Of a stretch of 55,372 nt of DNA, positions 8,915-46,947 are shown piece by piece. Source of the DNA: Candidatus Saccharimonadales bacterium. GTDB taxonomy: Bacteria; Patescibacteriota; Saccharimonadia; Saccharimonadales; UBA4665. How positions within the stretch are numbered: the first letter of the stretch is position 1; each line of letters begins with the position of its first letter. The stretch spans positions 1 to 55,372 of the forward strand of contig JBGTMN010000035.1 of assembly GCA_041743525.1 (NCBI GenBank), read 5' to 3'. The position numbers and the translations under genes are program-made. The notes below the pieces were generated by a model. That model saw only the letters and a program-made list of their open reading frames with translations. It made no database searches and had not been told where the DNA came from.

Positions 8915-11524
<2,610 letters not shown>

Positions 11525-22820: not shown

Positions 22821-22888
22821 AGATCCTTTGGATAGAAGTAAAAAAGTTTGTACAAAAAAATAAATGCTTATGCTATACTTGGAGTAAT

Positions 22889-24615: not shown

Positions 24616-24623
24616 GTAACGAC

Positions 24624-25298: not shown

Positions 25299-25543
25299 AA
25301 CAAAAAGATATAGCCCTCATTGCCATTATCATTATATTTAGCGGTATGATATCATTTTTTGCTGGCCGGTACCTATTCGCGACACCAGATAACAGGCAGG
25401 TAAAAGCAGAGGTCGTTGATGCGATTTCGACAGAGTTTATTCAGCCGAGTACCAAATATTTCAATGAACGATCGGTAAATCCCACACAACTTATTCAAAT
25501 CGGAGACGGCTCCAATGTCACGCCATTTAGCGGTCGTAACTAA
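25295..25543 (+). CDS. Small membrane-anchored protein of the pilus operon
   Basis: 82 aa, one TM helix (IALIAIIIIFSGMISFFAG), 4-nt overlap with the preceding gene. Confidence 0.5.
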   Translation: MKQKDIALIAIIIIFSGMISFFAGRYLFATPDNRQVKAEVVDAISTEFIQPSTKYFNERSVNPTQLIQIGDGSNVTPFSGRN

Positions 25544-25560
25544 AGAGCAGGGCATCGAGT

Positions 25561-27375: not shown

Positions 27376-27405
27376 TGACCTTAAACAAGCAGGAGACAAA
27401 TTGAT

Positions 27406-28470
27406 ATGGCAGTACCCCGAATAGAAGTATTACTCGAAGAAGTTGTGAAGCGAAGAGCCTCAGACCTTCACTTGCAGGTAGGATTGCCACCGATGCTTCG
27501 CATAGACGGCGCTCTCGCTCCTGTTCCCAGTACCGATCCGCTGACCGATGATGCTGTCGAAACGCTTATATTCGCAATTTTAGACGAGGATCAGAAGCAA
27601 ATTCTTTTGAAAGATAAAGAATTCGACTTTAGCTTTGCATTCGGAGATATGGGGCGATTCCGCGTGAACGCCTTCCATGAACGGGGAAATCTGGCTGCGG
27701 CGCTCAGGCTTATCAATAATGATATTCTGACTATCGAGCAGCTAGGGCTGCCGCCTATCGTCAATAAATTTGCAGACTATCCACGAGGACTCGTTTTGGT
27801 TACTGGCCCAACGGGTTCCGGCAAGTCTACGACGCTGGCCGCTATGATTAATAAAATTAATAGCGAGCGGGCAGCTCATATCATCACCATCGAAGACCCA
27901 ATCGAGTATACACATCGATCTAAAAAATCGGTGATTGTCCAAAGGGAAGTGCATTACGACACCTATTCGTTCTCGGCGGCGCTTCGTTCTGCGCTTCGTG
28001 AAGACCCGGACGTCGTGCTGGTCGGAGAAATGCGCGACCTCGAAACAATTGCCTCTGCTATTACTATTGCAGAAACCGGACACTTGGTTTTTGCAACATT
28101 GCACACCAACTCGGCAGCCCAGAGTATTGACCGTATGATAGACGTATTCCCACCGCACCAGCAGCCGCAGATTCGCGCTCAGTTGTCTAATATCCTTGCG
28201 GCTATCGTTTCGCAGCGCCTGGTTCCGGCTATCGGCGGCGGACGTATCGCATCAGCCGAAATCATGATCGCTACGCCTGCTGTCCGGAACATCATCCGTG
28301 AAGGCAAGGCTCATCAGCTCGATGCCGTTATTCAGACAGGTGCGGAATTCGGTATGCAATCTATGGACAAAACGCTCGTACAGCTTATTCATTCAGGAAC
28401 CATAACCTATGATGAAGCTCGTAATTACGCGATCGATATCGATGAGTTGGATAGGTTGATGCGTAGCTAA
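27406..28470 (+). CDS. pilT: Twitching-motility retraction ATPase PilT
   Basis: GPTGSGKSTT, LREDPDVVLVGEMRD, GHLVFATLHTNSA, AVRNIIREGK, 354 aa. Confidence 0.9.
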   Translation: MAVPRIEVLLEEVVKRRASDLHLQVGLPPMLRIDGALAPVPSTDPLTDDAVETLIFAILDEDQKQILLKDKEFDFSFAFGDMGRFRVNAFHERGNLAAALRLINNDILTIEQLGLPPIVNKFADYPRGLVLVTGPTGSGKSTTLAAMINKINSERAAHIITIEDPIEYTHRSKKSVIVQREVHYDTYSFSAALRSALREDPDVVLVGEMRDLETIASAITIAETGHLVFATLHTNSAAQSIDRMIDVFPPHQQPQIRAQLSNILAAIVSQRLVPAIGGGRIASAEIMIATPAVRNIIREGKAHQLDAVIQTGAEFGMQSMDKTLVQLIHSGTITYDEARNYAIDIDELDRLMRS

Positions 28471-28521
28471 TATGTTTGAATATAAAATTTCACCAGTAAA
28501 TGGTGCGAACGGAGATAAGTC

Positions 28522-29736
28522 ATGTTGAGTTATGAATATGTCGCCCGAAATCCCGCGAACGGACAAAAGGTAAAATCTGACGTTCAGGCCGACAGTGAAC
28601 AGGCGGCGGCACGGCTGATACGCGGTGAAGGTCTGGTGCCCGTAGATATCAAACTTATTTCTCAGGGGAGCGGTAAGCTGGCATTTTTGAACCGCGTACC
28701 ATCGAAAGACCGCGTGCTGTTTTCGAGGCAGCTATCTACCCTGATCGACGCCGGTCTGCCGCTACTGCAAAGCCTTCGGAACGTCAGTGCCCAGACAACC
28801 AATAAACCGCTTCGCATCGTGCTCGTTGATGTAATCGGTAGCGTAGAAGGTGGTCAGACGTTGTCGGGAGCGATGGAAAAACACCCGAAAGTATTTAACA
28901 GGGTGTATATCAGCATGATTGCCGCAGGCGAGGTTTCGGGTACTTTGGATCTTTCATTGCAAAGACTGGCCGATCAGCAAGAAAAAGATGCCGAAATTAT
29001 CAGTAAAGTCCGTGGAGCAATGATTTATCCGCTCATTGTGTTGCTGGTTATGGGGGCAGTGATGGGGTTCATGCTCGTTAAAGTCATGCCCCAGGTACAG
29101 GTTCTATATGACGGTTTTCCGGGGGCTGAATTGCCATTCATTACAAAAGCCCTATTAGCACTTTCTGCCTTCGTTATTAAATTTTGGTGGGCGATGGCGA
29201 TATTAGTAATCGTTGCAGCTATTATGACAACCAAATATGCCCGCACCGGTCCCGGTAAAGAAGTTATCGATAAATTCAAAATGAAGGCGCCGGGTATTAA
29301 AAGTCTGTTTATGAAAATGTACATGGCGCGTTTTGCCCGAACTGGTGGAACATTGGTCGCGAGTGGCGTGCCGCTTCTCCAGATGTTGGAAATTACCAGC
29401 GATGCAGTGAGTAATGTGCACGTAGAGCGATCCATAGATAAGGCTATAGACAAAGTAAGGGGCGGAAAATCTTTAGCAGACTCGTTAGAGGGTGATGAGA
29501 ATTTTCTGGATTTAGTACCGAACATGCTACGTATCGGTGAACAATCTGGTTCTATGGAGCAAATGCTCGAAAAAACTGCGGATTATTTCGAAAAAGAAGT
29601 CGATAACGAAATCAAGAACGTTCAGACCATTATAGAACCGGTACTGATGGTAGTTCTGGGTATCGTGGCTTTTATAATCGTAGCGGCAGTGCTGCTTCCG
29701 GTTTACGGCCTGGCGGGCAGCTCGTTTACGGTGTAG
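28522..29736 (+). CDS. pilC: Type IV pilus platform protein PilC (GspF family)
   Basis: Two GspF-type repeats separated by TM helices, 404 aa, follows pilB and pilT. Confidence 0.9.
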   Translation: MLSYEYVARNPANGQKVKSDVQADSEQAAARLIRGEGLVPVDIKLISQGSGKLAFLNRVPSKDRVLFSRQLSTLIDAGLPLLQSLRNVSAQTTNKPLRIVLVDVIGSVEGGQTLSGAMEKHPKVFNRVYISMIAAGEVSGTLDLSLQRLADQQEKDAEIISKVRGAMIYPLIVLLVMGAVMGFMLVKVMPQVQVLYDGFPGAELPFITKALLALSAFVIKFWWAMAILVIVAAIMTTKYARTGPGKEVIDKFKMKAPGIKSLFMKMYMARFARTGGTLVASGVPLLQMLEITSDAVSNVHVERSIDKAIDKVRGGKSLADSLEGDENFLDLVPNMLRIGEQSGSMEQMLEKTADYFEKEVDNEIKNVQTIIEPVLMVVLGIVAFIIVAAVLLPVYGLAGSSFTV

Positions 29737-29802
29737 TCGTGTGACGTCATTCACATGATACTGACTGTAGAAAAATGGGTTGCTGAGCTGTGGATAAAAC
29801 GC

Positions 29803-29831
29803 TTGCGCTTTACGAGCAACTTGCGTATGAT
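29803..29831 (+). promoter_or_regulatory. Putative sigma70-type promoter of the major pilin gene
   Basis: TTGCGC (29803-29808), 17-nt spacer, TATGAT (29826-29831). A G-rich SD sits upstream of ATG 29872. Confidence 0.4.
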
Positions 29832-29871
29832 TATAAGCATAAGAAATTAAATATATAAGGGGGCATTTTAA

Positions 29872-30363
29872 ATGCTTAAAAACACTGATAAACGTAACCA
29901 GGGCTTCACCATCATCGAAGTACTGATCGTGCTGGCTATCGCCGGTTTGATCCTTTTGATCGTCTTCCTGGCCGTTCCAGCGCTTCAGCGTAACTCACGT
30001 AACACGCAGGTAAAGAACGCCGCGGCTTCTATCTTGGGTGCGGTGAACGAATTCCAGAACAACAACAACGGACAGATGCCCACAGCCGCTAACATTACTA
30101 TCGACTCTAACACTGGTGCTGTCACTGTGGCCGGTGCTGCCGGAACAGCTCAGGCCACCGCGACTATCCAGGGGGGCTACTCTAAGTCTACCGCTACAGG
30201 TACGACTTTGGCTGCAAACGGTACTGCTGGTCAGTTCCAGGTTATGCCTAACCATAAATGTGCAGGCAACACCGGATTTACGCCAGCCCCACGTTCAGTC
30301 GCTATCGGTTTCTATGTAGAAACCAGTGGTTCGGCTACGGCTCCACAGTGTGTTGAAAGCTAG
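29872..30363 (+). CDS. pilA: Major type IV pilin
   Basis: KRNQG|FTIIEVLIVLAIAGLILLIVFLAV prepilin motif, 163 aa. Has its own promoter-like element and an intrinsic terminator. Confidence 0.85.
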   Translation: MLKNTDKRNQGFTIIEVLIVLAIAGLILLIVFLAVPALQRNSRNTQVKNAAASILGAVNEFQNNNNGQMPTAANITIDSNTGAVTVAGAAGTAQATATIQGGYSKSTATGTTLAANGTAGQFQVMPNHKCAGNTGFTPAPRSVAIGFYVETSGSATAPQCVES

Positions 30364-30384
30364 GAATATCCAAGCTTAGATAAG

Positions 30385-30409
30385 GAGGTCGCTTCGGCGG
30401 CCTCTTTTT
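30385..30409 (+). terminator. Intrinsic terminator after the pilin gene
   Basis: GAGGTCGC-TTCG-GCGGCCTC hairpin (8 bp, one G:T pair) followed by TTTTT. Confidence 0.7.
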
Positions 30410-30440
30410 GTATGGTAGGCCGGCATGCTATAGTACGGTA

Positions 30441-31301
30441 ATGGTTATACTTATTCTTGTAGTGCTGGGATTGTGTCTGGGTAGTTTTATAAACGCGTTC
30501 GTGTGGCGACTGTATAAACAGGAAGAATTGGCGGATCAAAAGGGCGTAAAAAAGGCTGTCAGTAAAATCAAGCAGAAGCTGAAACATGAAGACCTGTCTA
30601 TTACCACGGGGCGGAGTATGTGTAGCAACTGCCACCACCCGTTGGCTGCGAAGGATCTTATCCCGGTAATCAGTTATATATCTCTAAAAGGTAAATGTCG
30701 TTACTGCAAAAAACCGATCCAAGATACGCCGTTGCCAGAACTGTTACTTCCACTAATATTTGTAGTATCGTACATATTCTGGCCGGAGCCGTTAGAAGGT
30801 AAAGGGTTATTCCTGTTTATATTCTGGCTGATTTTCCTTTTAGGATTTGTGATCTTGACGGTGTACGATCTGCGCTGGCAGATATTACCCAACAAAGTCG
30901 TGTACCCGCTTGCTGGGCTTGCCCTTGGTCAAGTACTGATTGTGGCTGTGTTCTTTGAGGGAGGAATAGATACTATTTTGGGAGCGGCGGCCGGAGTGCT
31001 GGTAGGTAGCGGTATCTTTTATGCTTTGTTCCAGTACTCCAAAGGAAAGTGGATTGGCGGTGGCGATGTCAAGCTCGGCCTCGTGTTTGGTTTATTGGCT
31101 GGCAGTGCGGGCAATGCTTTTCTTATTATATTTTTGGCGTCTTTGATTGGAACTTTGGTAGCGGTTCCTTTGCTGGCGACAAAAAAAGCAGACAGAAATA
31201 CCCATCTTCCATTCGGACCTTTCCTGATCGCGGCAACTTTTATAGTTGTCTTATTCGGACGAAATATTCTTGATTGGTATGCCAACCAATTCATGCTGTA
31301 A
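30441..31301 (+). CDS. pilD: Prepilin peptidase / N-methyltransferase PilD (A24 family)
   Basis: CSNCHH...CRYCKK zinc motif. Polytopic core with GGGDVKL. ATG 30441 is preferred because the TTG at 30408 lies inside the terminator. Confidence 0.85.
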   Translation: MVILILVVLGLCLGSFINAFVWRLYKQEELADQKGVKKAVSKIKQKLKHEDLSITTGRSMCSNCHHPLAAKDLIPVISYISLKGKCRYCKKPIQDTPLPELLLPLIFVVSYIFWPEPLEGKGLFLFIFWLIFLLGFVILTVYDLRWQILPNKVVYPLAGLALGQVLIVAVFFEGGIDTILGAAAGVLVGSGIFYALFQYSKGKWIGGGDVKLGLVFGLLAGSAGNAFLIIFLASLIGTLVAVPLLATKKADRNTHLPFGPFLIAATFIVVLFGRNILDWYANQFML

Positions 31302-31341
31302 AATTCCTGTCATATAACATGCTTATGGTATACTTCAGTGT

Positions 31342-32208
31342 ATGAAGACTCATACTAAGTCTATGGGGCGGGGCGGGTTCACCATAATAGAAGTCCTGAT
31401 CGTACTGGCGATTACTGGAGCGCTATTCGTGAGTGCATTATCTTTGATCTCCGGTCGCCAGAACAAGACGCAGTTCGCGCAGGGCGCACGGGACGCGCAG
31501 GCGAAGATACAACAAGCAGCGAATGAGGTGTCCAGCGGCTATTTTAAACATGACGGCAGCATGGAATGCGAGGTAAGTCCCTCAGAAAGATTACGTATTT
31601 CGACGTCAGGCGGAAGCATTGAACGGGGAACGAGCAAGGAATGCACGTTCGTCGGAAAAGCACTGCAATTCGACGTGGCTGGCTCTGCCAATAACGAATT
31701 GGTACATGTCTATGGCGTATTGGGCCGTAGAACCAACGCGTCCGGAACGTTTACTACCTTGGACGACGCTCGCCCGAAGGTAGCGGCTATATCAGTTTCA
31801 AACCAGCCTACTGACGTGCCGGAAGGCATGTACGATGTCCAGGAATTGATATCTGGACTTTCGGTAGTCCGAATTACCTACGGTAGTTCGGCGCCATCAA
31901 GCCCTCAGATCGGAGCTTTCGCCTTTATTTCGCAGATTGGTTCCCTTGGTGCTACGGATGGGTCTCAGCAGGTCAATGTGGTGGCACTTCCCGGGACTAC
32001 TTTTAGCCAGTCGAAAATTCAAGGCGTCAGAGATATAAATGATGCGCTCGATGGCATATCCCCGACTCTCATAAACCCCGTAGGTGGTATACATGTCTGC
32101 CTAAAGAGTGGTACTACGAACAATCAGTCCGTGCTGCTGTCCGTCGGTTCTGGAGGGCGCGCCAGCGAAGTAGACCTACGGATAATGGGAACGGACAACT
32201 GCACATGA
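31342..32208 (+). CDS. Prepilin-type minor pilin
   Basis: GRGG|FTIIEVLIVLAITGALFV motif. Confidence 0.75.
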   Translation: MKTHTKSMGRGGFTIIEVLIVLAITGALFVSALSLISGRQNKTQFAQGARDAQAKIQQAANEVSSGYFKHDGSMECEVSPSERLRISTSGGSIERGTSKECTFVGKALQFDVAGSANNELVHVYGVLGRRTNASGTFTTLDDARPKVAAISVSNQPTDVPEGMYDVQELISGLSVVRITYGSSAPSSPQIGAFAFISQIGSLGATDGSQQVNVVALPGTTFSQSKIQGVRDINDALDGISPTLINPVGGIHVCLKSGTTNNQSVLLSVGSGGRASEVDLRIMGTDNCT

Positions 32209-32939
32209 TCCATGCTAAACAAAGTGAACGTGGGTTCACGATTATTGAACTGATGATAGCGATGATGGTTTTTTCGGTCATTTTATTAGTCGTGACTGCG
32301 GGGATTATGCGATTTACCAAGCAGTATTATAAAGGGGTTATATCCGGACAAACCCAAAACACGGCACGAGCTATTATTGATGACCTGACCCGATCTATAC
32401 AGTTTAATGGCGGTAACGTGACGCCGCTCAAAACAAATGCAAGTGATCCCGCGACGACACCACCAAGGGGCTATTGCATAGGCAACAATAAAATGTATAG
32501 CTTCAGAAAAGGATACCAGGTAAAAGACAACGGTGCATTAACTGGCTTACAGAGCCGCCATGGACTGGTTTCTGAATCGGTTTCGGGCTGTTCTTCGGCT
32601 TCTCTGGCTCGTGACACCGTGACATTGCCGTTGGCTCTGACCGGGACGAACTCCCGGGAGATGCTAGGTAACAATATGCGACTAGGTCGATTATCGATTG
32701 AGTCAGGTGGCGTGCCTAGCTTGTACGTACTTAGTGTCAAGGTATTGTACGGAGATAACGAGTTGCTGTGTAGCCCATCGGTGACTCCTGCTACGGGTCC
32801 AGGAGGCTGCGCGGCTACCGCTCCAGTTAACACTACCGTCCTAGAGAACAACGACGATATCCGCTGCAAGACGACGACTAACGCGGAATTCTGCGCCGTG
32901 TCCGAGCTTAAAACTACTATTAACAAGCGACTTAACTAG
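32205..32939 (+). CDS. Prepilin-type minor pilin
   Basis: SERG|FTIIELMIAMMVFSVILLVV motif, 4-nt overlap with the upstream gene. Confidence 0.75.
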   Translation: MIHAKQSERGFTIIELMIAMMVFSVILLVVTAGIMRFTKQYYKGVISGQTQNTARAIIDDLTRSIQFNGGNVTPLKTNASDPATTPPRGYCIGNNKMYSFRKGYQVKDNGALTGLQSRHGLVSESVSGCSSASLARDTVTLPLALTGTNSREMLGNNMRLGRLSIESGGVPSLYVLSVKVLYGDNELLCSPSVTPATGPGGCAATAPVNTTVLENNDDIRCKTTTNAEFCAVSELKTTINKRLN

Positions 32940-32949
32940 GAAGTAATCC

Positions 32950-34554
32950 ATGAAAAAACCTCCAGTAATCAAAAAAAATGTATCAGAGGCGGGCATTGTT
33001 TCTATAATGGTGACACTTATCCTGATGATGGTGATTACGCTCATTGTTCTTGGTTTTGCTCAGGTGTCCCGCCGCGAGCAGCGGCAATCTCTAGACAGGC
33101 AACTGAGCGCCCAGGCATTCTTCGCCGCAGAAAGCGGTGTGAACGACGCGCGTAAAGGACTGACAGATGCGCTACAAAACCCGCTCTTAGATAAAGAAAA
33201 AACTGATTGTGCGACCAGCTCGACATCTCCAGCTCCTTATAACTTTGATTCGAACATAGACGCCGCCAACAATGTAGCATATACATGCATGCTGGTCTCG
33301 ACGAAACTGGACAATATACAGCAGACAATCGAAGCCGACGGAAAATCGGTAACGATCCCGATAAATACCGGATCCACTAACTTGAGATCCCTGGAAATAG
33401 TCTGGGCCGTGCCTACTTCAGGCAATAACATTTCCACGTGTCAAAGTGGTTCGTCTATCCCGTCTGTCGGATCGTTGCCAAAAGCCAATGCTTGGACGTG
33501 TCCTTACGGAGTGCTTAGGATGGAAGTGCAGAACACTGCCGCTGGCCAACTTACCAGGACTGCGCTCAATGCCAATCAGCGCACGGCTTTCTTTTACCCA
33601 GTCAGTGCGTCAACGGGCTCAATAAACTATGCGGCCATGAAGGGGGCAGTAGCCCCGATCTCCTGCAATGCGTCGACTTGCCGGACTGTTATAACTGACC
33701 TGAATGGCACCAGTTTTTCGCTTCGCCTCAGTGCCTTATATAAAGGAGGTACATTTACCATTAGGGCTTTAGATAATGGCGACAATCCAATCATGCTGGA
33801 CGGCGTTCAGGCTCAGGTTGATGTCACTGGTAAGGCTCAGGACGTCTTACGCCGTATACAGGTGCGATTCTCTCTGATACCTGGTATTGGGAGTGACCGG
33901 GCGGAATATGCTATTGCTTCCGCTAGCTCGCTCTGCAAACGCTTCGAGGTAATCCGTTCCACCAACACCTTCAGGATTCCGGGCGATATCGTCAATCAGG
34001 ACGAGAATAATCCGATGTGCAAGAGTACGAGCAGCGGTCCACCGCCACCGCCACCGCCACTGATTTGCCCTAATACCGTTAGCTTCGACTTTGGCTTGCA
34101 GGTAGGTACGTGGCAGCCATATCACCTTACCGGTCAGCCTTGGTATGACTCGGTCACCGGCGTCATAATTGCTCCACCTAAACTGACATATTCTCTATTT
34201 GCAGACAAAGTCCCGGATCTCGTGAATATTAACGCCGGTTGCCGTTATGCAGTAACGATAGGTGGTTACGATGACAGTCATCCGCACATCCCGCCTTCCG
34301 AACAGCCAAACGAACGATTTGCTGCGGCGTTTTACGATGGCGGTATCTCTGTGGCTCCGCGTACCGACATGACAGATGACTGGCCTGACGCGTATAAAGT
34401 GGGTCCGAAGAAAACGACTAATATATGTTTCAGCGGTACACCTGACGAGATCAGGTTCCAACATCATAACTTAGTTACTGGTGACTACAGTGATACTAAT
34501 AGTGTCCAGGTACTGGATATTGAGATGCAGCTAATTGGCACTTGCGTCCCTTGA
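32950..34554 (+). CDS. PilX-like protein with poly-proline linker and an extra C-terminal domain
   Basis: PilX-type N-terminus (SEAGIVSIMVTLILMMVITLIVLGFAQ). SGPPPPPPPLICP linker followed by an approximately 165-aa C-terminal domain. Confidence 0.6.
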   Translation: MKKPPVIKKNVSEAGIVSIMVTLILMMVITLIVLGFAQVSRREQRQSLDRQLSAQAFFAAESGVNDARKGLTDALQNPLLDKEKTDCATSSTSPAPYNFDSNIDAANNVAYTCMLVSTKLDNIQQTIEADGKSVTIPINTGSTNLRSLEIVWAVPTSGNNISTCQSGSSIPSVGSLPKANAWTCPYGVLRMEVQNTAAGQLTRTALNANQRTAFFYPVSASTGSINYAAMKGAVAPISCNASTCRTVITDLNGTSFSLRLSALYKGGTFTIRALDNGDNPIMLDGVQAQVDVTGKAQDVLRRIQVRFSLIPGIGSDRAEYAIASASSLCKRFEVIRSTNTFRIPGDIVNQDENNPMCKSTSSGPPPPPPPLICPNTVSFDFGLQVGTWQPYHLTGQPWYDSVTGVIIAPPKLTYSLFADKVPDLVNINAGCRYAVTIGGYDDSHPHIPPSEQPNERFAAAFYDGGISVAPRTDMTDDWPDAYKVGPKKTTNICFSGTPDEIRFQHHNLVTGDYSDTNSVQVLDIEMQLIGTCVP

Positions 34555-34676: not shown

Positions 34677-35594
34677 TTAGGCAGCGGACTTGCCGTGGAA
34701 CCGCTCGTGGATGTCTTTTAAATGAGGGTCGGTCACGTGCGTATAAATCTGTGTTGTTGATATGTTGCTGTGTCCTAGCATGGCTTGAACGGAGCGCAGG
34801 TCGGCACCGTTCATCAGCAGATCTGTTGCGAACGAATGCCGCAGCGTATGCGGTGAGACGTGCTTGGTAATGCCGGCCATAAGTGCGTGGTTGGCTACCA
34901 GCCGCTGCACGCTCCGTGCGGTTAAGCGGTGATAATTACCACTTGTATCCACGGTTTTCCGGCCGCCGTAACGGGCGAAAAGCGGCTGGGCATTGTCTTT
35001 ACGCATGTCTAGGTAAGCCTGTATCCATTCGGCGGCAGGCGGACTTATGAATATCGGCCGGTCTTTCTGGCCTTTTCCGCGCACCATGAATTCGCGCCGT
35101 TTAAGATTGATGTGATCTTTGTCTAGCGCCACAAGTTCGGACACGCGTAGTCCGCTGGAAAACAGCAGTTCAAGTATGGCCCGGTCGCGCAGGCCGGCGA
35201 TAGTCGTCAGGTCCGGCTGGTCGAATAGCCGAGCTATTTCGTCCTCGTTCAGGAACGTGACCTGCTTGCGGGTCGTTTTAGCCAGCTCTATCTTGTCGGC
35301 AGGCAAGGCAAGGATGTCCCGTTTGGCGCAGTACTTCAAGAAGCTTCGCAGTGCAATCAGATGGTAATTTTGGGTGTTCTTCTGTAGCTCATCGCTGGTG
35401 TTGCTGCCCAATCGGTTCAGCCACAGCCGCCATTTCCGGATAAGTTCCGGTTTGATATCTTTGACGTCTATGTCTCCTGCAAAATCACTGAGGCGCGTCA
35501 GATAGTGGTCGTAGTTGCGGATAGTCCGCTGTGACCGGCCTTGCTCGATCTCCATGTATTCCAAAAAGTCGGCTTTGAGTTTGGTAAAAAGCAT
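34677..35594 (-). CDS. Tyrosine site-specific recombinase (XerC/XerD family)
   Basis: SAM-like N-domain. Catalytic region ...HTLRHSFATDLLMNGADLRSVQAMLGHSNISTTQIYTHV. Confidence 0.85.
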   Translation of the reverse strand: MLFTKLKADFLEYMEIEQGRSQRTIRNYDHYLTRLSDFAGDIDVKDIKPELIRKWRLWLNRLGSNTSDELQKNTQNYHLIALRSFLKYCAKRDILALPADKIELAKTTRKQVTFLNEDEIARLFDQPDLTTIAGLRDRAILELLFSSGLRVSELVALDKDHINLKRREFMVRGKGQKDRPIFISPPAAEWIQAYLDMRKDNAQPLFARYGGRKTVDTSGNYHRLTARSVQRLVANHALMAGITKHVSPHTLRHSFATDLLMNGADLRSVQAMLGHSNISTTQIYTHVTDPHLKDIHERFHGKSAA

Positions 35595-36196: not shown

Positions 36197-36321
36197 CCCC
36201 AAACTAACTCCTAAGTAAGGAGCGGTTTTGCGCAGCTGTTGTACACCGTCTTTCGTTGCGCCGTGTTTCTGCTCGGTATTCATAATTGCCGTATAAACGT
36301 CAGCTACGGTATACTGTGCTT

Positions 36322-37860
36322 ATGTTTAGGGTCGTTGCTAGTAGAGTTTTAAAGAATTTGAAACAAAAATCACAAATTTTGGTTGTCGGGGCAGTAATTC
36401 TTCTCATTTCCTTTGCCGGCATATACTTTCTCTCCCTCTCATCTGCCGCTACAATCGCCGTAAACGTTGAACCAGAACTGGGTTCTCCTTCTGACGGGGC
36501 GGAAATTATGTCTGACTCTGCCGCTTCAGGTGGCGGTGCTATATCTTTCCGTAAGCCAACGGTAGCAGCTACAAGCTGTTCGTCTGTTTCCCAACACGGT
36601 ATTGTGTGGAAATTAGACAAATCCTACCCATGCGGTAAATTCGCCAATGGAGACTTCTGGGTTACCCCAGCAAGTTCGGGAGGATCGGTTGTTATTACGT
36701 CTATGACGCCGGACTATTCTTCCGGCAGGCACGGATGGATGGTGAATCCTATTGACTCCGCTATGAACTACGACGACCGTATCAGCAGTAGTTTTGATGC
36801 TTCTAAAATACCCGTTCTGCCTTATGCTGCAAAAGGAAACAGTTCAATTGTGAAATCTATATCAAATAGCGGTGGATGCGGCAATACATCCGGACATCCT
36901 CCGTGCTTAAAGACGGCTGCAGTGCTTACGGTATTGCCGACTGTCCCACCGAACAACGGGTCAGGCACATTCCGGCCACCATACTTTGGCACGGCGAAAC
37001 CGCTTTACTCAGTCAGTCAGCTGCAAACTAACCTGTTACCAGCTTTAGCGCCAGTCGGCTCTGGCCCAACGCTTGATCAGATAGAAACTCGGTTCCAGAG
37101 AGTTCAGCTCGATCATAGTGGCAGCTGGCGCGGCCGATATCACCATCCGGCTGACAATTATATGAATTTTAGTGGCACTGGAGTCAGTAACTATGGTTCT
37201 GATCTGGCACGCGACAATAACGATGCAGCTCTCCGACTGATGCTGAGTGACTCTGTCAGCGCCAAAATGCCAGCACTTGTTAACTACGTACAGGCCGGCA
37301 TAGATTGGTATGGGGCGTCCAAGGGAGGGATTGACTACAATGCCGACGGCGGGCATTTCAATGGTCGAAAACTTCCGATTACATTCGCAGCCATACTCTT
37401 GAACGATGCTAATATGAAATCATATGTAGCTACATCGGGTGCCGCTGAATTCAGTGAAAACGGACAAGTTTACCATTCAAGTAAAGCCGGTAGGGCTCTG
37501 TGGGGGAGACCCTGTGGCGGTTCTACTTATTATACTGTTCTGAATGGCGGTAGCGGTGCCCGCGACTGTCGCGACCCGATCGAGATGATAGATGGCGGCG
37601 AAGTAGCAGGGGGAGTATATCAAAAATGCTGCACCAGTAAGAACTTTAAAGGTGCGTCCGCGGCCGTACGGCTATTGCCGGGCGCGGAAGCTGTCTGGAA
37701 TTACAGCCCATTCCATGAATACGTTGATCGCTGGGTCAGCTTTGGTACGTGGTCAAATCCCGATCCCGAAAGCCGCTTCTTATCAAGGCACGGAACCGAA
37801 GCAGATACCGGGTCGTATGGCTCGTCATTCCAAAACGCAATGTACTCGACTTATAAATAA
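36322..37860 (+). CDS. Secreted or anchored hypothetical protein (possible polysaccharide-active enzyme)
   Basis: ATG 36322 (MFRVVASR...), signal anchor, then NVEPELGSPSDGAEIMSDSAASGGGAISF. No recognisable catalytic motif. Confidence 0.6.
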   Translation: MFRVVASRVLKNLKQKSQILVVGAVILLISFAGIYFLSLSSAATIAVNVEPELGSPSDGAEIMSDSAASGGGAISFRKPTVAATSCSSVSQHGIVWKLDKSYPCGKFANGDFWVTPASSGGSVVITSMTPDYSSGRHGWMVNPIDSAMNYDDRISSSFDASKIPVLPYAAKGNSSIVKSISNSGGCGNTSGHPPCLKTAAVLTVLPTVPPNNGSGTFRPPYFGTAKPLYSVSQLQTNLLPALAPVGSGPTLDQIETRFQRVQLDHSGSWRGRYHHPADNYMNFSGTGVSNYGSDLARDNNDAALRLMLSDSVSAKMPALVNYVQAGIDWYGASKGGIDYNADGGHFNGRKLPITFAAILLNDANMKSYVATSGAAEFSENGQVYHSSKAGRALWGRPCGGSTYYTVLNGGSGARDCRDPIEMIDGGEVAGGVYQKCCTSKNFKGASAAVRLLPGAEAVWNYSPFHEYVDRWVSFGTWSNPDPESRFLSRHGTEADTGSYGSSFQNAMYSTYK

Positions 37861-37932
37861 AAGCAAGTTATGAACGACCTACCTGACCAGTAGTATTGTT
37901 ATAGCCCAGAATCGGGTATAATAACGCTCGTT

Positions 37933-38007
37933 GCCCCCGTAGTTCAATGGATAAAACAACTCCGTCCTAAGGAGAAGCTAGCGGTTCGAGTCCGTTCGGG
38001 GGCACCA
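37933..38007 (+). tRNA. tRNA-Arg (anticodon CCT), CCA encoded
   Basis: Acceptor GCCCCCG/CGGGGGC, anticodon loop GTCCTAA, T-arm AGCGG-TTCGAGT-CCGTT, 3-prime ACCA. Confidence 0.85.
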
Positions 38008-38019
38008 TTTCAAAGCCAA

Positions 38020-39183
38020 TCAGTTGTATCCCGGAGAGATGTAATTCATGCCGGGCAGGGATGCTGGAGCGTAATCTCCGGCTGGCGGAAGGCCTTTGTA
38101 TATCCGACCCTTGCCGCCGTTGCCGTTGTTTATGCCGTTGACTACTTTTGATTGTAGAGGCTCTGCGTACTGTCCGGTAGAATCCGACCCGAATGTGACC
38201 ATATTTGAGTAAAATCCGCTCGTGGCGCCACTGTCTGTCCATGTCCAGTTCGGGCCGAGCTGGTAGTACACGCTATTTCCCTGGAAAGTGAACGGCCCCT
38301 GCAGATTGCCGCTGGCAGTCACGAAGTTGATCAGTTTCTTTTGCTGGCCGGCTTTCGTATCTCCCCGGAAATTCACCCTGTCATAAATGCTGGTTTTCCA
38401 AGGAGTTTTGAGTGCACCGTCACCGAACATCCCACCCTGGTAGGGGTTTATGATAGTCACGTTGTTCATATACAGGCTTTCGATGCCTCCCCACGATTGA
38501 AACCCGTCCGTGTGATATACTTTGTCGGCCACATCGGTCAATCCCGAGACAATGGTGTTCGATTCGAGCCGTGAATTCTGAATGACGAATCTGCGGCTAC
38601 TCTGCTCATTGGCCTGGATACTGTCGAGTGCGTACTGCCCGTGTACATGCAACCCTTCGATGTATATGGTGCCGGTATTCGAACCCTTGAATATAAGTCC
38701 GTTGCGGTAGTTATAATAATTGCCCTGCGTGGAGCTGTATGTGGTATTGGATTCAGGGGACGCGATATTTATTTCACCGCCTATGATCTTGATATTCCGA
38801 CCACCCACGAACGTCAGTCTCGCTTTGGCAGGGGAGTCGAAGACTATGTGATAATCCGTGTTGGCGGCAAGTACGTATTCCTTTCTTGTAATATTGCCGC
38901 CGACCTTGAGCGTCGTCCAGGATGAGCTTGCCGGCGGCGACCATCGGAGCTTGGGTTGTCCGGAAGTAGCTCCGCTGAATTTCACTGATTTTCCGGAAGA
39001 TGCCCCGGAATCCGTCACGACAGTGGCCCCGGAACCGATTGTGCCGTTTTCGGGTTCTATCGACATGAACGGGGTAGATGCGGAAGTGAGCAGGGCAGCT
39101 GCCAGTCCAATGACACCGAAACCGGTGATGACGAGCACGGGCACTTTCCAGGTAGATTTTTTTGGTTTCACGGCTTTTTTCAT
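38020..39183 (-). CDS. Secreted or anchored protein, right-handed beta-helix-like (possible glycan lyase or hydrolase)
   Basis: Signal anchor, SIEPENGTIGSGATVVTDSGASSGKSVKF motif, then repeated short beta-strand segments (IIGGEINI, IYIEGLHVHG, IQNSRLESN). Confidence 0.55.
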   Translation of the reverse strand: MKKAVKPKKSTWKVPVLVITGFGVIGLAAALLTSASTPFMSIEPENGTIGSGATVVTDSGASSGKSVKFSGATSGQPKLRWSPPASSSWTTLKVGGNITRKEYVLAANTDYHIVFDSPAKARLTFVGGRNIKIIGGEINIASPESNTTYSSTQGNYYNYRNGLIFKGSNTGTIYIEGLHVHGQYALDSIQANEQSSRRFVIQNSRLESNTIVSGLTDVADKVYHTDGFQSWGGIESLYMNNVTIINPYQGGMFGDGALKTPWKTSIYDRVNFRGDTKAGQQKKLINFVTASGNLQGPFTFQGNSVYYQLGPNWTWTDSGATSGFYSNMVTFGSDSTGQYAEPLQSKVVNGINNGNGGKGRIYKGLPPAGDYAPASLPGMNYISPGYN

Positions 39184-41503: not shown

Positions 41504-42460
41504 ATGAGCTCCCAAGAACAATTTCCTGATCCAATTCAGCAACCCCAACCTGGTGATTATGTGCCGTCGCAAGCACAGGAATTCCCGGCAGGCGCAGAAT
41601 ATATGGCGCCTGAGGCTCATGCAGATATGGCGCGCCTTCCAGAAGCTGGACGATTTGCAGATCTGTCCAATGACGCCAAGGTGCAATTATACCGAACTGA
41701 CCGATTCAACCGATTGGCTGGCCAGGCATACATGCCCTTATTGCAAGAGTATATAGACTCACCAGGCAGCGACGTATCCCGCCAGGAATTCAGTAGGAAT
41801 TTCACGGGTGAATTATCGGAAAGGGGCAATTTACTTGATAGTCAGGGAAATGAAACCAACTATCGCCCAGACAGTATCGGTAGGTTCAGAGTTGATCCCG
41901 CTAAAGAAGCTGAAGCACTTGAGGCAGCATACATGCAGTTGGCAACCGAAAAGAAAATGGCACAAGCAATTGATGAGATAGGACTTTTACCACAGGAACA
42001 TAGCAGCATCGAACTTAATGAGATTGGAGTTACTTCTCCCGGAGAATTGCAGCAAAAACAAGCTGAACGGGACAAGTTTGAAGATAATGTTATTTCTAAC
42101 TTTGTGGCCCACGGTGCTATCGAAGCCCAAATCCAAGCACACCGCGAGATTATGGCGAGAATGAAAAACGCAGAATTAAAGCGCGGCCGGCTATTTCCTC
42201 ACCAAGCAGGTTTTGTAAGATTTGAAGCTTTAGCTGAACCCGAAAGGGCTGGAAGTCTTGATATCGGTATAGGTTCGGGCTATGAACAAGGTGATTGGGT
42301 AAATGTACGGCGATCGTCGGGTGAAATCGAGCATCAATGGACATTTATGGGAGTTGATTACAGGACAGGTTTATCCCGAGTTGCCGGTTTTGATGAACAC
42401 GGCGGGCGTATGTACAAAGATTACCCATTGACCGAACTTGATAAGCTCAACCAACGTTGA
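41504..42460 (+). CDS. Hypothetical protein (Pro/Gln-rich N-terminus, small beta-rich C-terminal domain)
   Basis: Long ORF with coding-like composition, directly upstream of the PafA/Dop-like gene. No recognisable motif. Confidence 0.6.
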   Translation: MSSQEQFPDPIQQPQPGDYVPSQAQEFPAGAEYMAPEAHADMARLPEAGRFADLSNDAKVQLYRTDRFNRLAGQAYMPLLQEYIDSPGSDVSRQEFSRNFTGELSERGNLLDSQGNETNYRPDSIGRFRVDPAKEAEALEAAYMQLATEKKMAQAIDEIGLLPQEHSSIELNEIGVTSPGELQQKQAERDKFEDNVISNFVAHGAIEAQIQAHREIMARMKNAELKRGRLFPHQAGFVRFEALAEPERAGSLDIGIGSGYEQGDWVNVRRSSGEIEHQWTFMGVDYRTGLSRVAGFDEHGGRMYKDYPLTELDKLNQR

Positions 42461-42633: not shown

Positions 42634-43809
42634 ATGCTAAACTTCGACTACATGAGTGTTAAGCCCGAAAATTTTAGCTCCTCACAGCCTCCGGCAAGAC
42701 CTATTGGCACGGAGTGTGAATACAATCTCCAGCTCGAAGAGATTGGTGACGCTCGTAGCGCTTGGGATCCTAAAAGTATGCAGTCCCGGGGTATCAATAA
42801 CAGCTTTGGTTATCTGGGGTCTAAATACGGCTCCGGTCGGATATATTTGGATGTCGGTAATCATGTTGAATTCGATACAAAAGCTGCTCTTGGGCCGGCA
42901 GCGGCAGCGGTTGAGGACATTGAAAGCATTGACAGGCTAAGCCGCATCGTACAAAGCTCTGAAATTTCCCATGCGGGATTGTATCGTGTTGCTGGCACCT
43001 ATATTCAAAATGGCAGGGTTTCTGCAGACGATTCATGCGAACGTTCGTCAGAAGGCAAGTCTAGCGGATACCACGAAAACTACCTGATTCCCAGGTATGT
43101 CGTCGAAGACAAATTGCTGGATATGGTGGTGTCAACCGCTCTCTCTTGCCGTCAGTGGGCCATGGTCGGCACTATAAAAGACGGCGCCTTCGTGTTTTCG
43201 CAGAAAGTATGGGGTACTGGCGGTGAGCCGGTTGAAGCCGCCAAACAGTTTTCCGGAGATCTAACGCTGACTCGTGTTGCTAAAACTCTCCAAGGCAAGA
43301 CGGTGACGAGCCTGTCGGCTCAAGAAAGCTTACTTGATTTATACGAATCATTCGAAGAAAAGGATATAGAATTGCCTGAAGATGAAAAACTGGCTATTGT
43401 AGCCTTGCGGGGTTTGATTGACGGCCTTCGTGCAAGCCGTCCGGCAGAAACTCAGTATACGGCGATGGCGCGTTCCAGAATAGATTTCGCTGCTAAACAC
43501 CAATTCGTATCCCGCCGGAAAGATGGCACTCATATTCCAATAGATTCCCACGAAGCCATGCAGCGCAATCTATTATGGGACAGGGTATTGCCGGTGGGTA
43601 ATGGCTATAACTACTGGACGCAATTAGCCAGCAAAGATCCGCTGGCCGAGCAGGTGCGGAAAATGGCCGGAAAGGCCGGAAACATCGAACGTGAAGTGAA
43701 CAGGGCGGCAATGATCGATGACTCTAAGGTCGATGGCTTGGTTATAAACTGGGCACGTTACAAAGACGCTCAGGGTACGGTCAGGTCGCTTGGCAATCCT
43801 ATTGGATAG
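42634..43809 (+). CDS. Pup ligase/deamidase family protein (PafA/Dop-like), shortened and divergent
   Basis: PIGTECEYNL (cf. GIETEFG), GSGRIYLDVGNHVEFDT (cf. GARLYLDVGSHPEYAT), SSGYHENYLIPR (cf. GCHENYLI). Start uncertain: TTG 42592, ATG 42634 or ATG 42652. Confidence 0.7.
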   Translation: MLNFDYMSVKPENFSSSQPPARPIGTECEYNLQLEEIGDARSAWDPKSMQSRGINNSFGYLGSKYGSGRIYLDVGNHVEFDTKAALGPAAAAVEDIESIDRLSRIVQSSEISHAGLYRVAGTYIQNGRVSADDSCERSSEGKSSGYHENYLIPRYVVEDKLLDMVVSTALSCRQWAMVGTIKDGAFVFSQKVWGTGGEPVEAAKQFSGDLTLTRVAKTLQGKTVTSLSAQESLLDLYESFEEKDIELPEDEKLAIVALRGLIDGLRASRPAETQYTAMARSRIDFAAKHQFVSRRKDGTHIPIDSHEAMQRNLLWDRVLPVGNGYNYWTQLASKDPLAEQVRKMAGKAGNIEREVNRAAMIDDSKVDGLVINWARYKDAQGTVRSLGNPIG

Positions 43810-43820
43810 AAGAACGGCTC

Positions 43821-44036
43821 CTATTGTCCGCCTTTTTGGATATAGCCCTGTACGAACTCCTCGGCATTTTCTTCAAGTACTTCATCGATATCTTCGAGCA
43901 ATCTATCGAGCCCCTCATTGTCGATGCCCTCCAAGGCTGCCTTGCCGGCCTGCTGAGCGGCGCTTAACGTTTCCTGGTCTACTTCCGCGTCCGCTTCGGA
44001 TTTCTGGCTTTTGGTTTCGCGTGATTTCTGTACCAT
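43821..44036 (-). CDS. pup: Prokaryotic ubiquitin-like protein Pup
   Basis: 71 aa with AAGGAG SD. C-terminus LDRLLEDIDEVLEENAEEFVQGYIQKGGQ-stop is nearly identical in pattern to mycobacterial Pup (...LLDEIDDVLEENAEDFVRAYVQKGGQ). Confidence 0.9.
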   Translation of the reverse strand: MVQKSRETKSQKSEADAEVDQETLSAAQQAGKAALEGIDNEGLDRLLEDIDEVLEENAEEFVQGYIQKGGQ

Positions 44037-44102
44037 CAGTAGCTCCTTACTTGTTAAATTGCTGTCAGTTTAACATAAGCTGGCGTGTATATGCACTGAG
44101 TT

Positions 44103-45899
44103 TTATAACTGGCTCCTGAAAAGTCGCACGTAATGCCCTTGATTGGCTACTAGTTCGGCATGAGTGCCACGCTCCACCAACACACCATCTTCGAACATCA
44201 AAATTACGTCGGCTTTTTGAACCGTGGAGAGGCGATGGCTTATGGTGACCACCGTCCGCTGTCTATCGTTAAATAGATGCTCGAATATACGGGCTTCGGC
44301 CAGGGCGTCGATGGCAGAGGTCGGCTCATCGAGGATGACGATTGGGGCGCCGCGGTAAAAATCGCGGGCCAGCGCCAGTCGTTGCCATTGGCCGCCCGAC
44401 AGATCGACGCCTTTGTTGCCTTTGTCATCTTCCATCCAGTTGTTGACATATGTTTCTGCGCCTTGCGGAAGTTTGGAGACGAATTTATGGGCTTCTGCAA
44501 GCTTGAGAGCTGTTTGCATACGTTCATGGTCGTGCGGACTGTCTACATCGCCAAACCGTACGTTATCTCCCGCGTTCGCAAAATTGTAATGTATGAACTC
44601 CTGCTGAAGTACGCCGAGTTGTTTGTGCCAGGATGCTGTGTCGTAGTCAGCCAGGCTGATACCGTCGAGTAAGATTTTACCGTTTGTCGGTTGGTACAGT
44701 CCTGTCAGCAGTCTCACGAGCGTTGATTTGCCAGCGCCATTTTCGCCGACAACCGCGACGTGCTGATTGGCTGAAATGCTAAATGATACGTCCTTCAGAG
44801 CCGGAGTCGTACTGCCGGGATAAGAAAAGGTGACATTCTCAAATGTTATTTGATGCGGTGCTGTCTGTAGTATCTTGCCGTTTGTTTGGGGTGTCGGCAG
44901 CTGCATGAACTGTTCGTAATCAAAGAGGTTTGCAATGTCTTCATCGATTTGTCCAAGCGTAGATACGAAGGACGAAGCACTCTGCATGGCCCGCGACACG
45001 ATCTGCTGTACGAACAAAAACTGTCCGACCGGATGATTGCGGGCAATAATCTGCAGGCTGATCCATATGAGTGCGCTGAGTTCTACGATAGCTTGGAGAA
45101 CGTCGGATGCGATTCTGAGCGGCATGAATGTCTTCTCGAATTCTATACGGCCTTTTTCATCGGCGTCCCGAAGTTTTCGCCGGTGACGCAGCATGAAATT
45201 TACCATGCCGTACAAGCGTAGTTCGGAAATGAGATTCGGTTGCCCCAGATGCCATTCGAGCATATTTTTGGCGCGCCGGACTTCAACATTCTCGTTCCAG
45301 TGAGCAATCTGTTTCCGTGATAATTTAAACTGTATATACACGCCCGGCGTAATGGCCAGGAGCACCGCGAGCGCAAGCAGTGGCTCAAACAATGCGAGCG
45401 CAATGATCGCCGTTATAACACCGATCAATTGGGATATCAGTGACGCGATACGATCAAACACCCACGCAAAGAAATTAGAAAATTTTAGCGCTCTGTCGTA
45501 TAAGTCGGCGGTGTCTTTGTCGTCGTAGCGCCAGAATTCCAGCGCCAAAAAATGGGCATACATACGGTCGCTGACTGCTGCCTCTACGACATATCGCATC
45601 TTGGTTTGAATGTAATTGTCTATGCTGCTCCAGAGCGTCAAAAGCAGACCGAGCAGGGCAGTGATGACAACATAGGTTATTGCTTGCGTTCCGGCGACGA
45701 CATCCCCTCCGTAAGCAGCTACCAGTGCAGTTGTCGTCAGGGCAGCATAGTACGTGGTCACTATCGGCAAAATGGCATCTATGAATGCACCGATGAGCTT
45801 GAAGATCACCGGTCCCGGCGCTACTTTGAAACTGAGCCGTGCGACGCCGCTGACTGCCTTGATCTGCTCTTTGGTGGTTAGTTTTTTCTTGTCACTCAC
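44103..45899 (-). CDS. ABC exporter, fused permease-ATPase (MsbA/MdlB-like)
   Basis: Six-TM N-domain. Walker A GENGAGKST, signature LSGGQWQR, Walker B VILDEPTS. Confidence 0.9.
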   Translation of the reverse strand: MSDKKKLTTKEQIKAVSGVARLSFKVAPGPVIFKLIGAFIDAILPIVTTYYAALTTTALVAAYGGDVVAGTQAITYVVITALLGLLLTLWSSIDNYIQTKMRYVVEAAVSDRMYAHFLALEFWRYDDKDTADLYDRALKFSNFFAWVFDRIASLISQLIGVITAIIALALFEPLLALAVLLAITPGVYIQFKLSRKQIAHWNENVEVRRAKNMLEWHLGQPNLISELRLYGMVNFMLRHRRKLRDADEKGRIEFEKTFMPLRIASDVLQAIVELSALIWISLQIIARNHPVGQFLFVQQIVSRAMQSASSFVSTLGQIDEDIANLFDYEQFMQLPTPQTNGKILQTAPHQITFENVTFSYPGSTTPALKDVSFSISANQHVAVVGENGAGKSTLVRLLTGLYQPTNGKILLDGISLADYDTASWHKQLGVLQQEFIHYNFANAGDNVRFGDVDSPHDHERMQTALKLAEAHKFVSKLPQGAETYVNNWMEDDKGNKGVDLSGGQWQRLALARDFYRGAPIVILDEPTSAIDALAEARIFEHLFNDRQRTVVTISHRLSTVQKADVILMFEDGVLVERGTHAELVANQGHYVRLFRSQL

Positions 45900-45945: not shown

Positions 45946-46947
45946 TTATGCGTTATCTTTGTAAGCCTCGTACCCGAAATCCACCAATTCTTCCTTGTCC
46001 CGTGCAACGCGTACCAGCCCTGACGTACGGGCAGATACGATCTCCAGGTGATGGCGCTGCAATGCGCGGAGGCGGTTCGGATAATCCTCCGGATTAACTA
46101 TGCCTGTCTCGGGATCCGTGTAGTCTTCTATGAGTACGCCAAATGGTCTGCCGCTCATGACAGACGCCGCAGTCAGCATGCCGGTTTCGACGAGTGATCC
46201 ATAGCTCGGATGATGTGCGTCGATGCATTGCAGCAGTACGCGTGCACCGATCTTGTGGGCAATTTCTTCTGTGTGATGTTTGTCAAAATCCCAATCTGGC
46301 TTGTAGGCGATATAGGTGGGCAATCCTTTGCTTTGTAGCGTATTCGAAGTCTCGTCGATGGTCCGAGGGGTAGAATCCGGACAGGGCTGAGTAGTGCCGA
46401 ATATTGCAATTTCGGGTATTTTTGATACGGGCCGTGCGGCTTCCAAGGGAATATCCAGTCCATGGCCGGCGCTGTATATCGAGCTGACGGCGTGGTCGAC
46501 GAATTCATCATATGTCTGGCTGATATGGCATAGTCCAGGTTGTATCTCGTTTAGCCTTTCGGACTGGCTGACGACGAGTTGCCGGGTTCGCAAAAATTCC
46601 TGGGAATACCGACTGGCCTCAGATACACGTTCAACATAAAACGATAGGCTTTTGCGGGTGAGCAGACTGCTGGAAATCGACCAACCTATTTCCGCCAAGC
46701 TTCCATAACCCAATGTGCCCGCGTGGACACCGACTACAACCGTCTTGGAGTTATAGAGGACTCCTGTCTCGGCAGGGAGACTGTCCCGGCTCCATCCGGT
46801 GACTTGAAAGGGGTCGAAGTACGTTTTATTGGTATCTACGCATGCGACTTTGAAAGGTTCGCGCCAGCTATTTTCTTGGCCGCAGCTGCCGTAGAGTATC
46901 ACCTCTGCCGTGGGCAGGGAAGGAGTTTGTTCGATTTGGGTATGCAT
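45946..46947 (-). CDS. Tandem nucleoside 2-deoxyribosyltransferase-like (Rossmann-like) domain protein
   Basis: Two internal repeats. The first is VILYGSCG...VVVGVHAGTLGYGSLAEIGWSI. The second is IAIFGTTQ...VLLQCIDAHHPSYGSLVETGMLTA. Family assignment is by pattern memory only. Confidence 0.4.
   Translation of the reverse strand: MHTQIEQTPSLPTAEVILYGSCGQENSWREPFKVACVDTNKTYFDPFQVTGWSRDSLPAETGVLYNSKTVVVGVHAGTLGYGSLAEIGWSISSSLLTRKSLSFYVERVSEASRYSQEFLRTRQLVVSQSERLNEIQPGLCHISQTYDEFVDHAVSSIYSAGHGLDIPLEAARPVSKIPEIAIFGTTQPCPDSTPRTIDETSNTLQSKGLPTYIAYKPDWDFDKHHTEEIAHKIGARVLLQCIDAHHPSYGSLVETGMLTAASVMSGRPFGVLIEDYTDPETGIVNPEDYPNRLRALQRHHLEIVSARTSGLVRVARDKEELVDFGYEAYKDNA

Follow-up and report, generated by a model that had tools for sequence, protein, structure and literature searches.

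Pupylation is regarded as a trait of Actinobacteria and Nitrospira, with two paralogous enzymes, PafA and Dop, and usually with Mpa and the proteasome. Reviews and a 2020 phylogeny (PMC7947786) place Dop and PafA in Actinobacteria and Nitrospirae, and bacteria of the candidate phyla radiation (CPR) go unmentioned there. On contig JBGTMN010000035.1 of a Candidatus Saccharimonadales bacterium, a gene for the tag protein Pup faces a shortened gene of the PafA/Dop superfamily. Is this pair a real pupylation module, and is its short enzyme a new minimal ligase or a damaged copy of a longer one? The stretch analysed (the window) was the whole contig of 55,372 bp, and what we report as absent from the window is absent from that contig. 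The pair is a genuine Pup and Pup-ligase-family module in a Saccharibacterial genome, and the shortness of its enzyme is a one-off deletion of a catalytic strand, neither a family trait nor a new minimal enzyme.

The pup gene (43821..44036, minus strand) encodes a protein of 71 amino acids with the Gly-Gly-Gln (GGQ) C-terminus expected of Pup, a small protein ending in Gly-Gly-Gln/Glu. Its C-terminal sequence is EEFVQGYIQKGGQ (also rendered LEENAEEFVQGYIQKGGQ), with YIQKGGQ as the last residues. The product scored 63.5 bits on the Pfam Pup model PF05639 (cutoff, 27) and 58.8 bits on TIGR03687 (cutoff, 41.45). A Shine-Dalgarno sequence, AAGGAG, was read from the sequence at 44043..44048 (minus strand), 6 nucleotides 5' of the pup ATG. 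The initial annotation, which had recognized a 71-residue Pup frame with a perfect Shine-Dalgarno sequence and a convergent protein 11 nucleotides away, is borne out on these points; the enzyme frame ends at 43809, and the spacer between the two convergent stop codons, also read from the sequence, measures 11 nucleotides (43810..43820).

The convergent gene (42652..43809, plus strand) was identified from Pfam, its relatives, and an AlphaFold2 (AF2) model as a PafA/Dop-superfamily (PF03136) enzyme of 385 amino acids with an internal deletion. A frame of ~390 residues starting at 42634 had been proposed before. The frame is real, but the likeliest start is ATG 42652 (MSVKPENF...), which fits the N-termini of all relatives (M-x-[IV]-x-P-E-D-F); ATG 42634 and TTG 42592 are in-frame alternatives upstream. 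The sequence blocks GTECEY, GRIYLDVGNHVEFDT, and GYHENYL, previously taken as hallmarks of a Pup ligase, are all present. The enzyme scored 51.3 bits on Pfam Pup_ligase PF03136 (cutoff, 25), split over two stretches, and both genes thus lie above the curated cutoffs of the Pup and Pup-ligase families. Its scores on the PafA equivalog TIGR03686 and the Dop equivalog TIGR03688 were 37.6 bits (cutoff, 551.3) and 21.7 bits (cutoff, 492.3), respectively. The AF2 model of the 385-residue protein had a predicted local distance difference test score (pLDDT) of 87.6, and its top Foldseek matches were Dop and PafA (E 2e-12; TMq 0.65-0.69), so that both the PF03136 score and the PafA/Dop fold with its C-terminal domain place it in the superfamily. 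The strand-1 Glu (E23) and the catalytic Asp (D67) stand 44 residues apart; the corresponding spacing is 48 for PafA and 84 for Dop. The Asp lies in a YLDVGNH loop, and the alignment to Protein Data Bank (PDB) profiles passes over the Dop loop, in agreement with the earlier remark that this segment has a PafA-like length without a Dop-loop insertion.

The contig itself is Saccharibacterial (CPR) and not actinobacterial, an origin that would have made the module ordinary. The F-ATPase beta subunit AtpD (9178..10671, minus strand), used as taxon marker, is 80-91% identical to many proteins, and all the named ones are from Candidatus Saccharibacteria or Saccharimonadales. The guanine-plus-cytosine (GC) content is ~0.49 along the whole contig, module included.

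We then compared the enzyme with its relatives. A search over 5.8 billion proteins returned 42 relatives, nearly all of 447-513 amino acids, and the contig enzyme could be aligned with them over its full length, interrupted only by a clean in-frame gap of 84 profile positions. The gap falls between ...KVWGTGGEPVE and AAKQFSGD..., a place that 81-95 residues fill in every relative. The best BLAST segment of the contig enzyme always spanned only half of the query, and the closest relatives (466-476 amino acids) were 53-56% identical to it on each side of the gap. Clade proteins from that search were pooled with those that HMMER found on scanning 1.84 billion representatives exhaustively, and all 178 were aligned to the family hidden Markov model (HMM). 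A large internal gap (hmmalign, profile positions 188-272) was present in only one of them, the contig enzyme. The next-largest internal gap was 17 positions, and the other 177 proteins have about 450-500 amino acids when complete. Seven further metagenome loci carry complete genes of the close family without the gap, and an eighth gene is truncated at its contig end. When the corresponding segments of eight relatives were searched against the contig by tblastn, the missing block was found nowhere else (best E 0.25). These results indicate that the conserved block for which the initial annotation saw no equivalent after FSQKVWGTGG is truly absent, the alignments placing its loss after WGTGGEPVE. 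The suggestion of a "minimal" short design does not hold, as the in-frame deletion of 84 positions is private to this protein, 1 of the 178 in the family.

The junction, located with MAFFT and hmmalign, lies at the codons CCG GTT GAA (Pro-Val-Glu; 43228..43236, plus strand), in the context WGTGGE-PVE-AAKQFSGD. In the family, a P-[VI]-x motif stands at both edges of the gap, as GGxP[VI]E[RH] upstream and DP[VI]xAAK downstream, and MAFFT divides the single PVE of the contig enzyme between these two sites. Because both gap edges fall on P-[VI]-x, the deletion may have arisen between short direct repeats, and the contig allele would then be a private in-frame loss of 84 codons between Pro-Val(-Glu) microhomologies.

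The lost block is the densest run of invariant residues in the family. Near-invariant residues that are gone include K209, P210, M211, R231, E233, R235, D238, S242, S254, R258, and E261 (numbering of the relative P0002). In the AF2 model of the intact P0002 (pLDDT 93.5), the block comprises a cradle strand (229-234), a long helix (243-261), and short elements around them, and profile-to-PDB alignment equates it with Dop residues about 205-275. Within this stretch of Acidothermus Dop lie R227 and H241, which hold the catalytic phosphate, and H231, which stacks in the nucleotide pocket (PMC8599861); the two phosphate-holding residues are replaced in the clade and absent from the contig enzyme. 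The active site of M. tuberculosis PafA consists of strands 1-4, 6, and 7, and ATP gives some of its strongest protection to beta7 (216-222) and to the loop 205-215 (PMC12053664). None of the 177 other family proteins lacks the strand equivalent to beta7 or the loop before it, but the cradle of the contig enzyme is incomplete, with profile positions 188-272 gone. The contig enzyme therefore lacks one of six active-site strands together with the phosphate-binding residues. Because these elements are deleted, ATP-dependent ligation by the contig enzyme appears very unlikely, as does Dop-type hydrolysis at the same site.

By contrast with the deleted block, the rest of the gene is well preserved. 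Outside the gap, the contig enzyme keeps 42 of the 44 sites that are conserved at ≥90% in the family (leave-one-out; family range, 76-100%), among them the E-x-E of strand 1, the loop of the catalytic Asp, and GYHENY. In a relative-rate comparison, it was ~1.7 identity points farther from the other members than its sister P0002. Neither comparison showed decay, and the gene does not qualify as an old pseudogene; pup, too, is intact. The deletion is either recent or has left a remnant that is still selected, two cases that a nearest relative of only 55% identity does not separate. A recent loss is the probable case, given that neither pup nor the remainder of the enzyme gene has decayed.

What, then, is the family from which this enzyme descends? 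The intact relatives have ~465 amino acids, and the AF2 fold of P0002 matches Dop and PafA at template modelling (TM) scores of 0.70-0.73, C-terminal domain included. The next structural matches are YbdK and glutamine synthetases. On the NCBIfam PafA and Dop models, the relatives score about equally, at 29-125 bits (29-113 on TIGR03686 and 34-125 on TIGR03688; cutoffs, 551 and 492), whereas a bona fide PafA (P0043), to which they are 24% identical, scores 639 bits on the PafA equivalog. By these measures, the intact relatives form a separate clade and are neither PafA nor Dop. With PafA (TIGR03686; 4B0T, 4BJR), the clade shares PF03136, the fold with the C-terminal domain (TM about 0.70), the lack of a Dop loop, a YxDVG(x)H catalytic loop, and a location beside pup. 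In the clade, 44-46 residues lie between the strand-1 Glu and the catalytic Asp, compared with 48 in PafA. Dop (TIGR03688; 4B0R, 7OXY, 9CKU) has the same fold (TM 0.72-0.73) and gives the best PDB profile matches (107-120 bits), but it has a loop of ~40 residues and a VDHAH motif, whereas the clade has no Dop loop and an Asp loop of the LDVG(x)H type (DVGxH). The Dop loop and the type of Asp loop are published discriminators of PafA and Dop (PMC7947786), and in both the clade is PafA-like.

The clade differs from both enzymes in the strand that the contig enzyme has lost entirely. PafA and Dop have RR[LMF]HVIxGD at this position (RR[LM]HVIVGD in PafA), whereas the clade has R-x-E-x-R-x-x-D, exact in 129 of the 178 proteins and with a nearly universal Glu and second Arg. 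The loop before this strand (KPM...D.D) is also unlike that of PafA. Together with the following N-x-Y-L-x-F-A, the motif aligns with the glutamine synthetase (GS) strand RRIEVRFPDPAANPYLCFA, which bears E357 and R359. GS and the GCS2/YbdK ligases have the same beta-sheet cradle fold as the clade and share with it the strand signature R-x-E-V-R-x-x-D-P...N-x-Y-L-x-F-A (E357 and R359 in GS), but they lack the PafA/Dop C-terminal domain and a Pup partner and act on small-molecule substrates. Since H-x-I is common to PafA and Dop while the clade has the GS state, the most economical interpretation would place the clade outside both PafA and Dop.

At least four GTDB species representatives carry the family, all of them metagenome-assembled genomes (MAGs) of Saccharibacteria; the count is a lower bound, as the search used a narrow pattern. 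Carriers include GCA_028289125.1, GCA_025449905.1, contig JAJZMX010000004.1 (MAS3.bin45), and contig JAXHNE010000005.1 of a Salar de Ascotan MAG. For the wider clade, searching a word-indexed database by profile returned only 12 matches. One relative has been named "PafA [Candidatus Saccharibacteria bacterium]" by the NCBI pipeline. As far as we have seen, the module is lineage-specific and, though annotated automatically by NCBI, undescribed.

Two further groups of loci were observed beside the clade. A sister branch (P0226, P0228, and P0232) shares ~30% identity with the Pup-linked clade, and no Pup gene lies within its reach. At each of its three loci (L011, 9421-11470; L013, 488-2515; L014, 8712-10781), a gene for a 189-residue CobA/CobO/BtuR-like P-loop protein (PF02572) stands immediately before the enzyme gene, on the same strand, and in two of the three an F-ATP synthase operon lies a few kilobases away. 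This linkage suggests a different partner or substrate for the sister enzymes. Locus L026 (6753-10336), on a metagenome contig, carries two tandem PF03136 paralogs, one with an insertion of ~40 residues after strand 1, and looks like an ordinary Dop and PafA locus; it was used as an internal contrast.

We next asked how constant the pairing with Pup is. A convergent Pup gene lies 1-35 nucleotides past the enzyme gene in 11 of 12 testable loci, namely the window and ten others (L001, L003, L005, L006, L010, L016, L018, L019, L020, and L021). The exception, L017 (1029-3147), has a full-length ligase of the close family followed directly by an open reading frame (ORF) for a YdjM-like membrane protein, with no downstream Pup, which may have been lost there or be encoded elsewhere. 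Seven of the Pup tails are GGQ, two are GGE, and two are NGQ; the Asn-Gly-Gln tails (...QVNGQ) belong to L003 (11408-11623, minus strand) and L006 (11439-11711, minus strand). The contig Pup is 59% identical to that of L001. The Saccharibacterial lineages of the clade are only 32-55% identical to each other, and the pairwise identities of enzyme and Pup are correlated between loci (r = 0.39; Mantel p about 0.004), which is consistent with inheritance of the two genes as a unit. The flanking genes are unlike in every lineage: uvrC and a YdjM-family membrane protein in one, glycosyltransferases and an S1-family trypsin-like serine protease in another, gatCAB in a third, and others elsewhere. In L003, from the Candidatus Saccharibacteria MAG RYN_420, a heme-copper oxidase set (COX1-4, a COX2-like protein, and UbiA; 15627-20363) was observed 4-9 kb from the Pup module and points to an environmental, aerobic Saccharibacterial lineage.

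Components of the Pup-proteasome pathway were not found near these modules. A Pfam survey of all large ORFs of the contig detected neither a proteasome subunit nor an Mpa/ARC-type AAA ATPase and, besides the module enzyme, no ligase homolog, and the family HMM run against all six-frame ORFs of the contig detected no second PF03136 gene. The 55-kb contig therefore does not hold the set of prcA/prcB, mpa/arc, dop, and pafA that makes up a Pup-proteasome locus, as the initial annotation had stated for prcA/prcB, mpa/arc, and a second ligase. Likewise, no proteasome, Mpa, or second PF03136 gene was among those called up to 10 kb from the module in L001-L006. In PafA loci, pup lies upstream on the same strand, whereas in the clade it is convergent, with no dop, mpa, or prcAB nearby. 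Of the earlier proposal of minimal proteasome-independent tagging, one half finds support, since the recurring self-contained pair fits a system that is independent of the proteasome or unlinked to it; the shortness of the enzyme is no part of such a design.

Taken together, these results probably describe a two-gene module specific to a subset of Saccharibacteria, whose enzyme in this contig is dead or severely impaired by a private recent deletion. In the intact systems, the enzyme would phosphorylate the C-terminal Glu of Pup at the expense of ATP and couple the activated Pup to lysines of target proteins. Because most Pup tails end in Gln, either the same enzyme would deamidate Pup first or use Pup-Gln directly, or an unseen paralog would do so; the GGQ and NGQ Pups would require a deamidase activity of the Dop kind. 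Direct use has a precedent in an engineered Dop/PafA hybrid, which conjugated Pup-Gln as such, apparently through an acyl-phosphate intermediate (PMC7947786). In the contig allele, the deletion removes the PafA-beta7-equivalent strand with its preceding loop and following helix, and thereby the ATP and phosphate contacts, and tagging would probably stop at the ligase step.

Several points weigh against this interpretation. The features that speak for a ligase over a deamidase are the topology and the DVGxH loop only, and beyond the contig the genome may still encode Mpa, a proteasome, or a second paralog. AF2 still folds the deleted protein confidently (pLDDT 87.6), although this says nothing on activity. 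With the nearest relative at 55% identity, comparison does not fix the age of the deletion, and the intact 385-codon frame with its conserved sites also fits a retained, altered function. Moreover, the deletion is seen on a single contig from a single sample, where an artefact of assembly or amplification is possible.

A bolder reading concerns the intact module and is, in our estimate, rather unlikely. It would be a self-sufficient single-enzyme form of pupylation predating the PafA/Dop duplication, in which one enzyme activates and ligates Pup-Gln or Pup-Glu without Dop, Mpa, or the proteasome. Branching before the duplication is proposed because the clade keeps the E-x-R strand of glutamine synthetase. 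More speculatively still, an episymbiont living on Actinobacteria could use its near-canonical Pup against the Pup-proteasome pathway of the host; if this were true, the deleted allele of the contig would be a natural knockout of that system.

It is unlikely that the 385-residue protein is itself a functional short form, whether it binds Pup or regulates without catalysis or is an enzyme whose active site, remodelled to five strands, selection has maintained since the deletion. The intact frame, the 42 of 44 conserved sites retained, the lack of rate acceleration, the intact pup with its good Shine-Dalgarno sequence, and the confident AF2 model would all suit such a protein. However, a recent deletion would leave flanks that look equally intact, the short protein is the sole example among 178 family members and 12 metagenome loci, and the deleted block holds 11 invariant or near-invariant residues as well as the phosphate and nucleotide contacts of Dop and PafA.

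We likewise consider it improbable that the deletion arose during assembly or whole-genome amplification and that the gene of the organism is full-length. The evidence comes from one contig and one sample, and the breakpoints lie in a short repeat (the P-V-x codons), where chimeric joins can arise. On the other hand, this repeat is at most ~9 nucleotides, much shorter than the k-mers of assemblers, the reading frame runs on exactly across the join with both flanks aligning perfectly, and the region shows no other sign of chimerism and has a uniform GC.

The C-terminal half of the contig Pup may be close to that of actinobacterial Pups such as M. tuberculosis Pup. A recent transfer of the module from an actinobacterial host of the episymbiont, raised in the initial annotation as a host-derived module, is nonetheless highly improbable and was rejected: cultivated Saccharibacteria grow on Actinobacteria (PMC10633639), and pupylation is centred on that phylum (PMC3511204, PMC7947786), but the clade is 24% identical to true PafA and reaches just 29-125 bits on the PafA and Dop models, it has the GS-type E-x-R where PafA and Dop have H-x-I, its lineages are 32-55% identical to each other with Pup co-diverging, and the module GC (0.47-0.51) equals the contig mean.

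A full-text literature search found, in the library that it covered, no paper joining pupylation or PafA with Saccharibacteria, Patescibacteria, or CPR bacteria. The UBact study reportedly described Pup-like tags and PafA/Dop homologs outside Actinobacteria, some CPR candidate phyla included, and UBact reportedly forms a tag family of its own that occurs together with Mpa and proteasome homologs. The contig tag passes the Pup models themselves, which would set it apart from UBact. Proteasome-less loci of the Corynebacterium type resemble the contig in having Pup and a ligase without prcAB, which implies a non-proteasomal role, but these genomes keep dop and an ARC/Mpa ATPase in a rigidly ordered locus (PMC3511204), whereas the Saccharibacterial loci hold only Pup and one convergent enzyme between variable flanks. 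The single-copy PafA/Dop homologs of some Planctomycetes, the outgroup of Hecht et al. 2020 (PMC7947786), are also found outside Actinobacteria and Nitrospirae, one per locus, and like the clade are about equidistant from PafA and Dop. They are reported to be 29-31% identical to PafA/Dop and to align partly with the Dop loop (PMC7947786), which the clade lacks; this comparison was made by description only.

At the level of the family, the module is of more interest than the initial annotation could show, with a distinct clade, a conserved convergent pair, and a GS-like strand. A canonical Pup combined with a single enzyme of PafA topology and GS-type strand would provide a natural test of the proposal that PafA and Dop descend from a promiscuous ligase (PMC7947786), and the clade would show what role pupylation has without a proteasome in organisms with minimal genomes. 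The contig itself calls for caution, as its most exotic-looking feature, the short ligase, turned out to be a one-off deletion.

Among the neighbours of the module, an ABC exporter (44103..45899, minus strand) is co-directional with pup and lies 66 nucleotides upstream of it, as previously noted, but it was rejected as a module part because it is not a conserved neighbour in related loci. The hypothetical protein of 318 residues (41504..42460), which had been suggested as a possible member, was also rejected, as it has no Pfam or NCBIfam match and no homolog at any related locus. Scans for promoters and terminators around the module gave matches no more frequent than in shuffled sequence.

The rest of the contig carries the F-type ATP synthase operon, a type IV pilus cluster, a XerC/D-like recombinase, NDK, a PpiC/SurA-type isomerase, NrdR, and five tRNAs. 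The pilus cluster (17830-34554) is large and typical of Saccharibacteria and includes PilM, a weak PilO match, PilB- and PilT-like ATPases, PilC, a prepilin peptidase, several N-methyl pilins, and PilX-like proteins. The tyrosine recombinase of the XerC/D type (34677-35594, minus strand) lies ~2.3 kb from tRNA-Arg(CCT) at 37933-38007. A protein of 333 residues (45946-46947, minus strand) shows an N-terminal nucleoside 2-deoxyribosyltransferase-like match below threshold (24.5 bits; cutoff, 30). Finally, runs of ORFs of 320-520 codons without a Pfam match occupy 2311-8875 and 36286-39183, with weak Ig/PKD-like matches only in 2311-3273, and may encode lineage-specific surface proteins.

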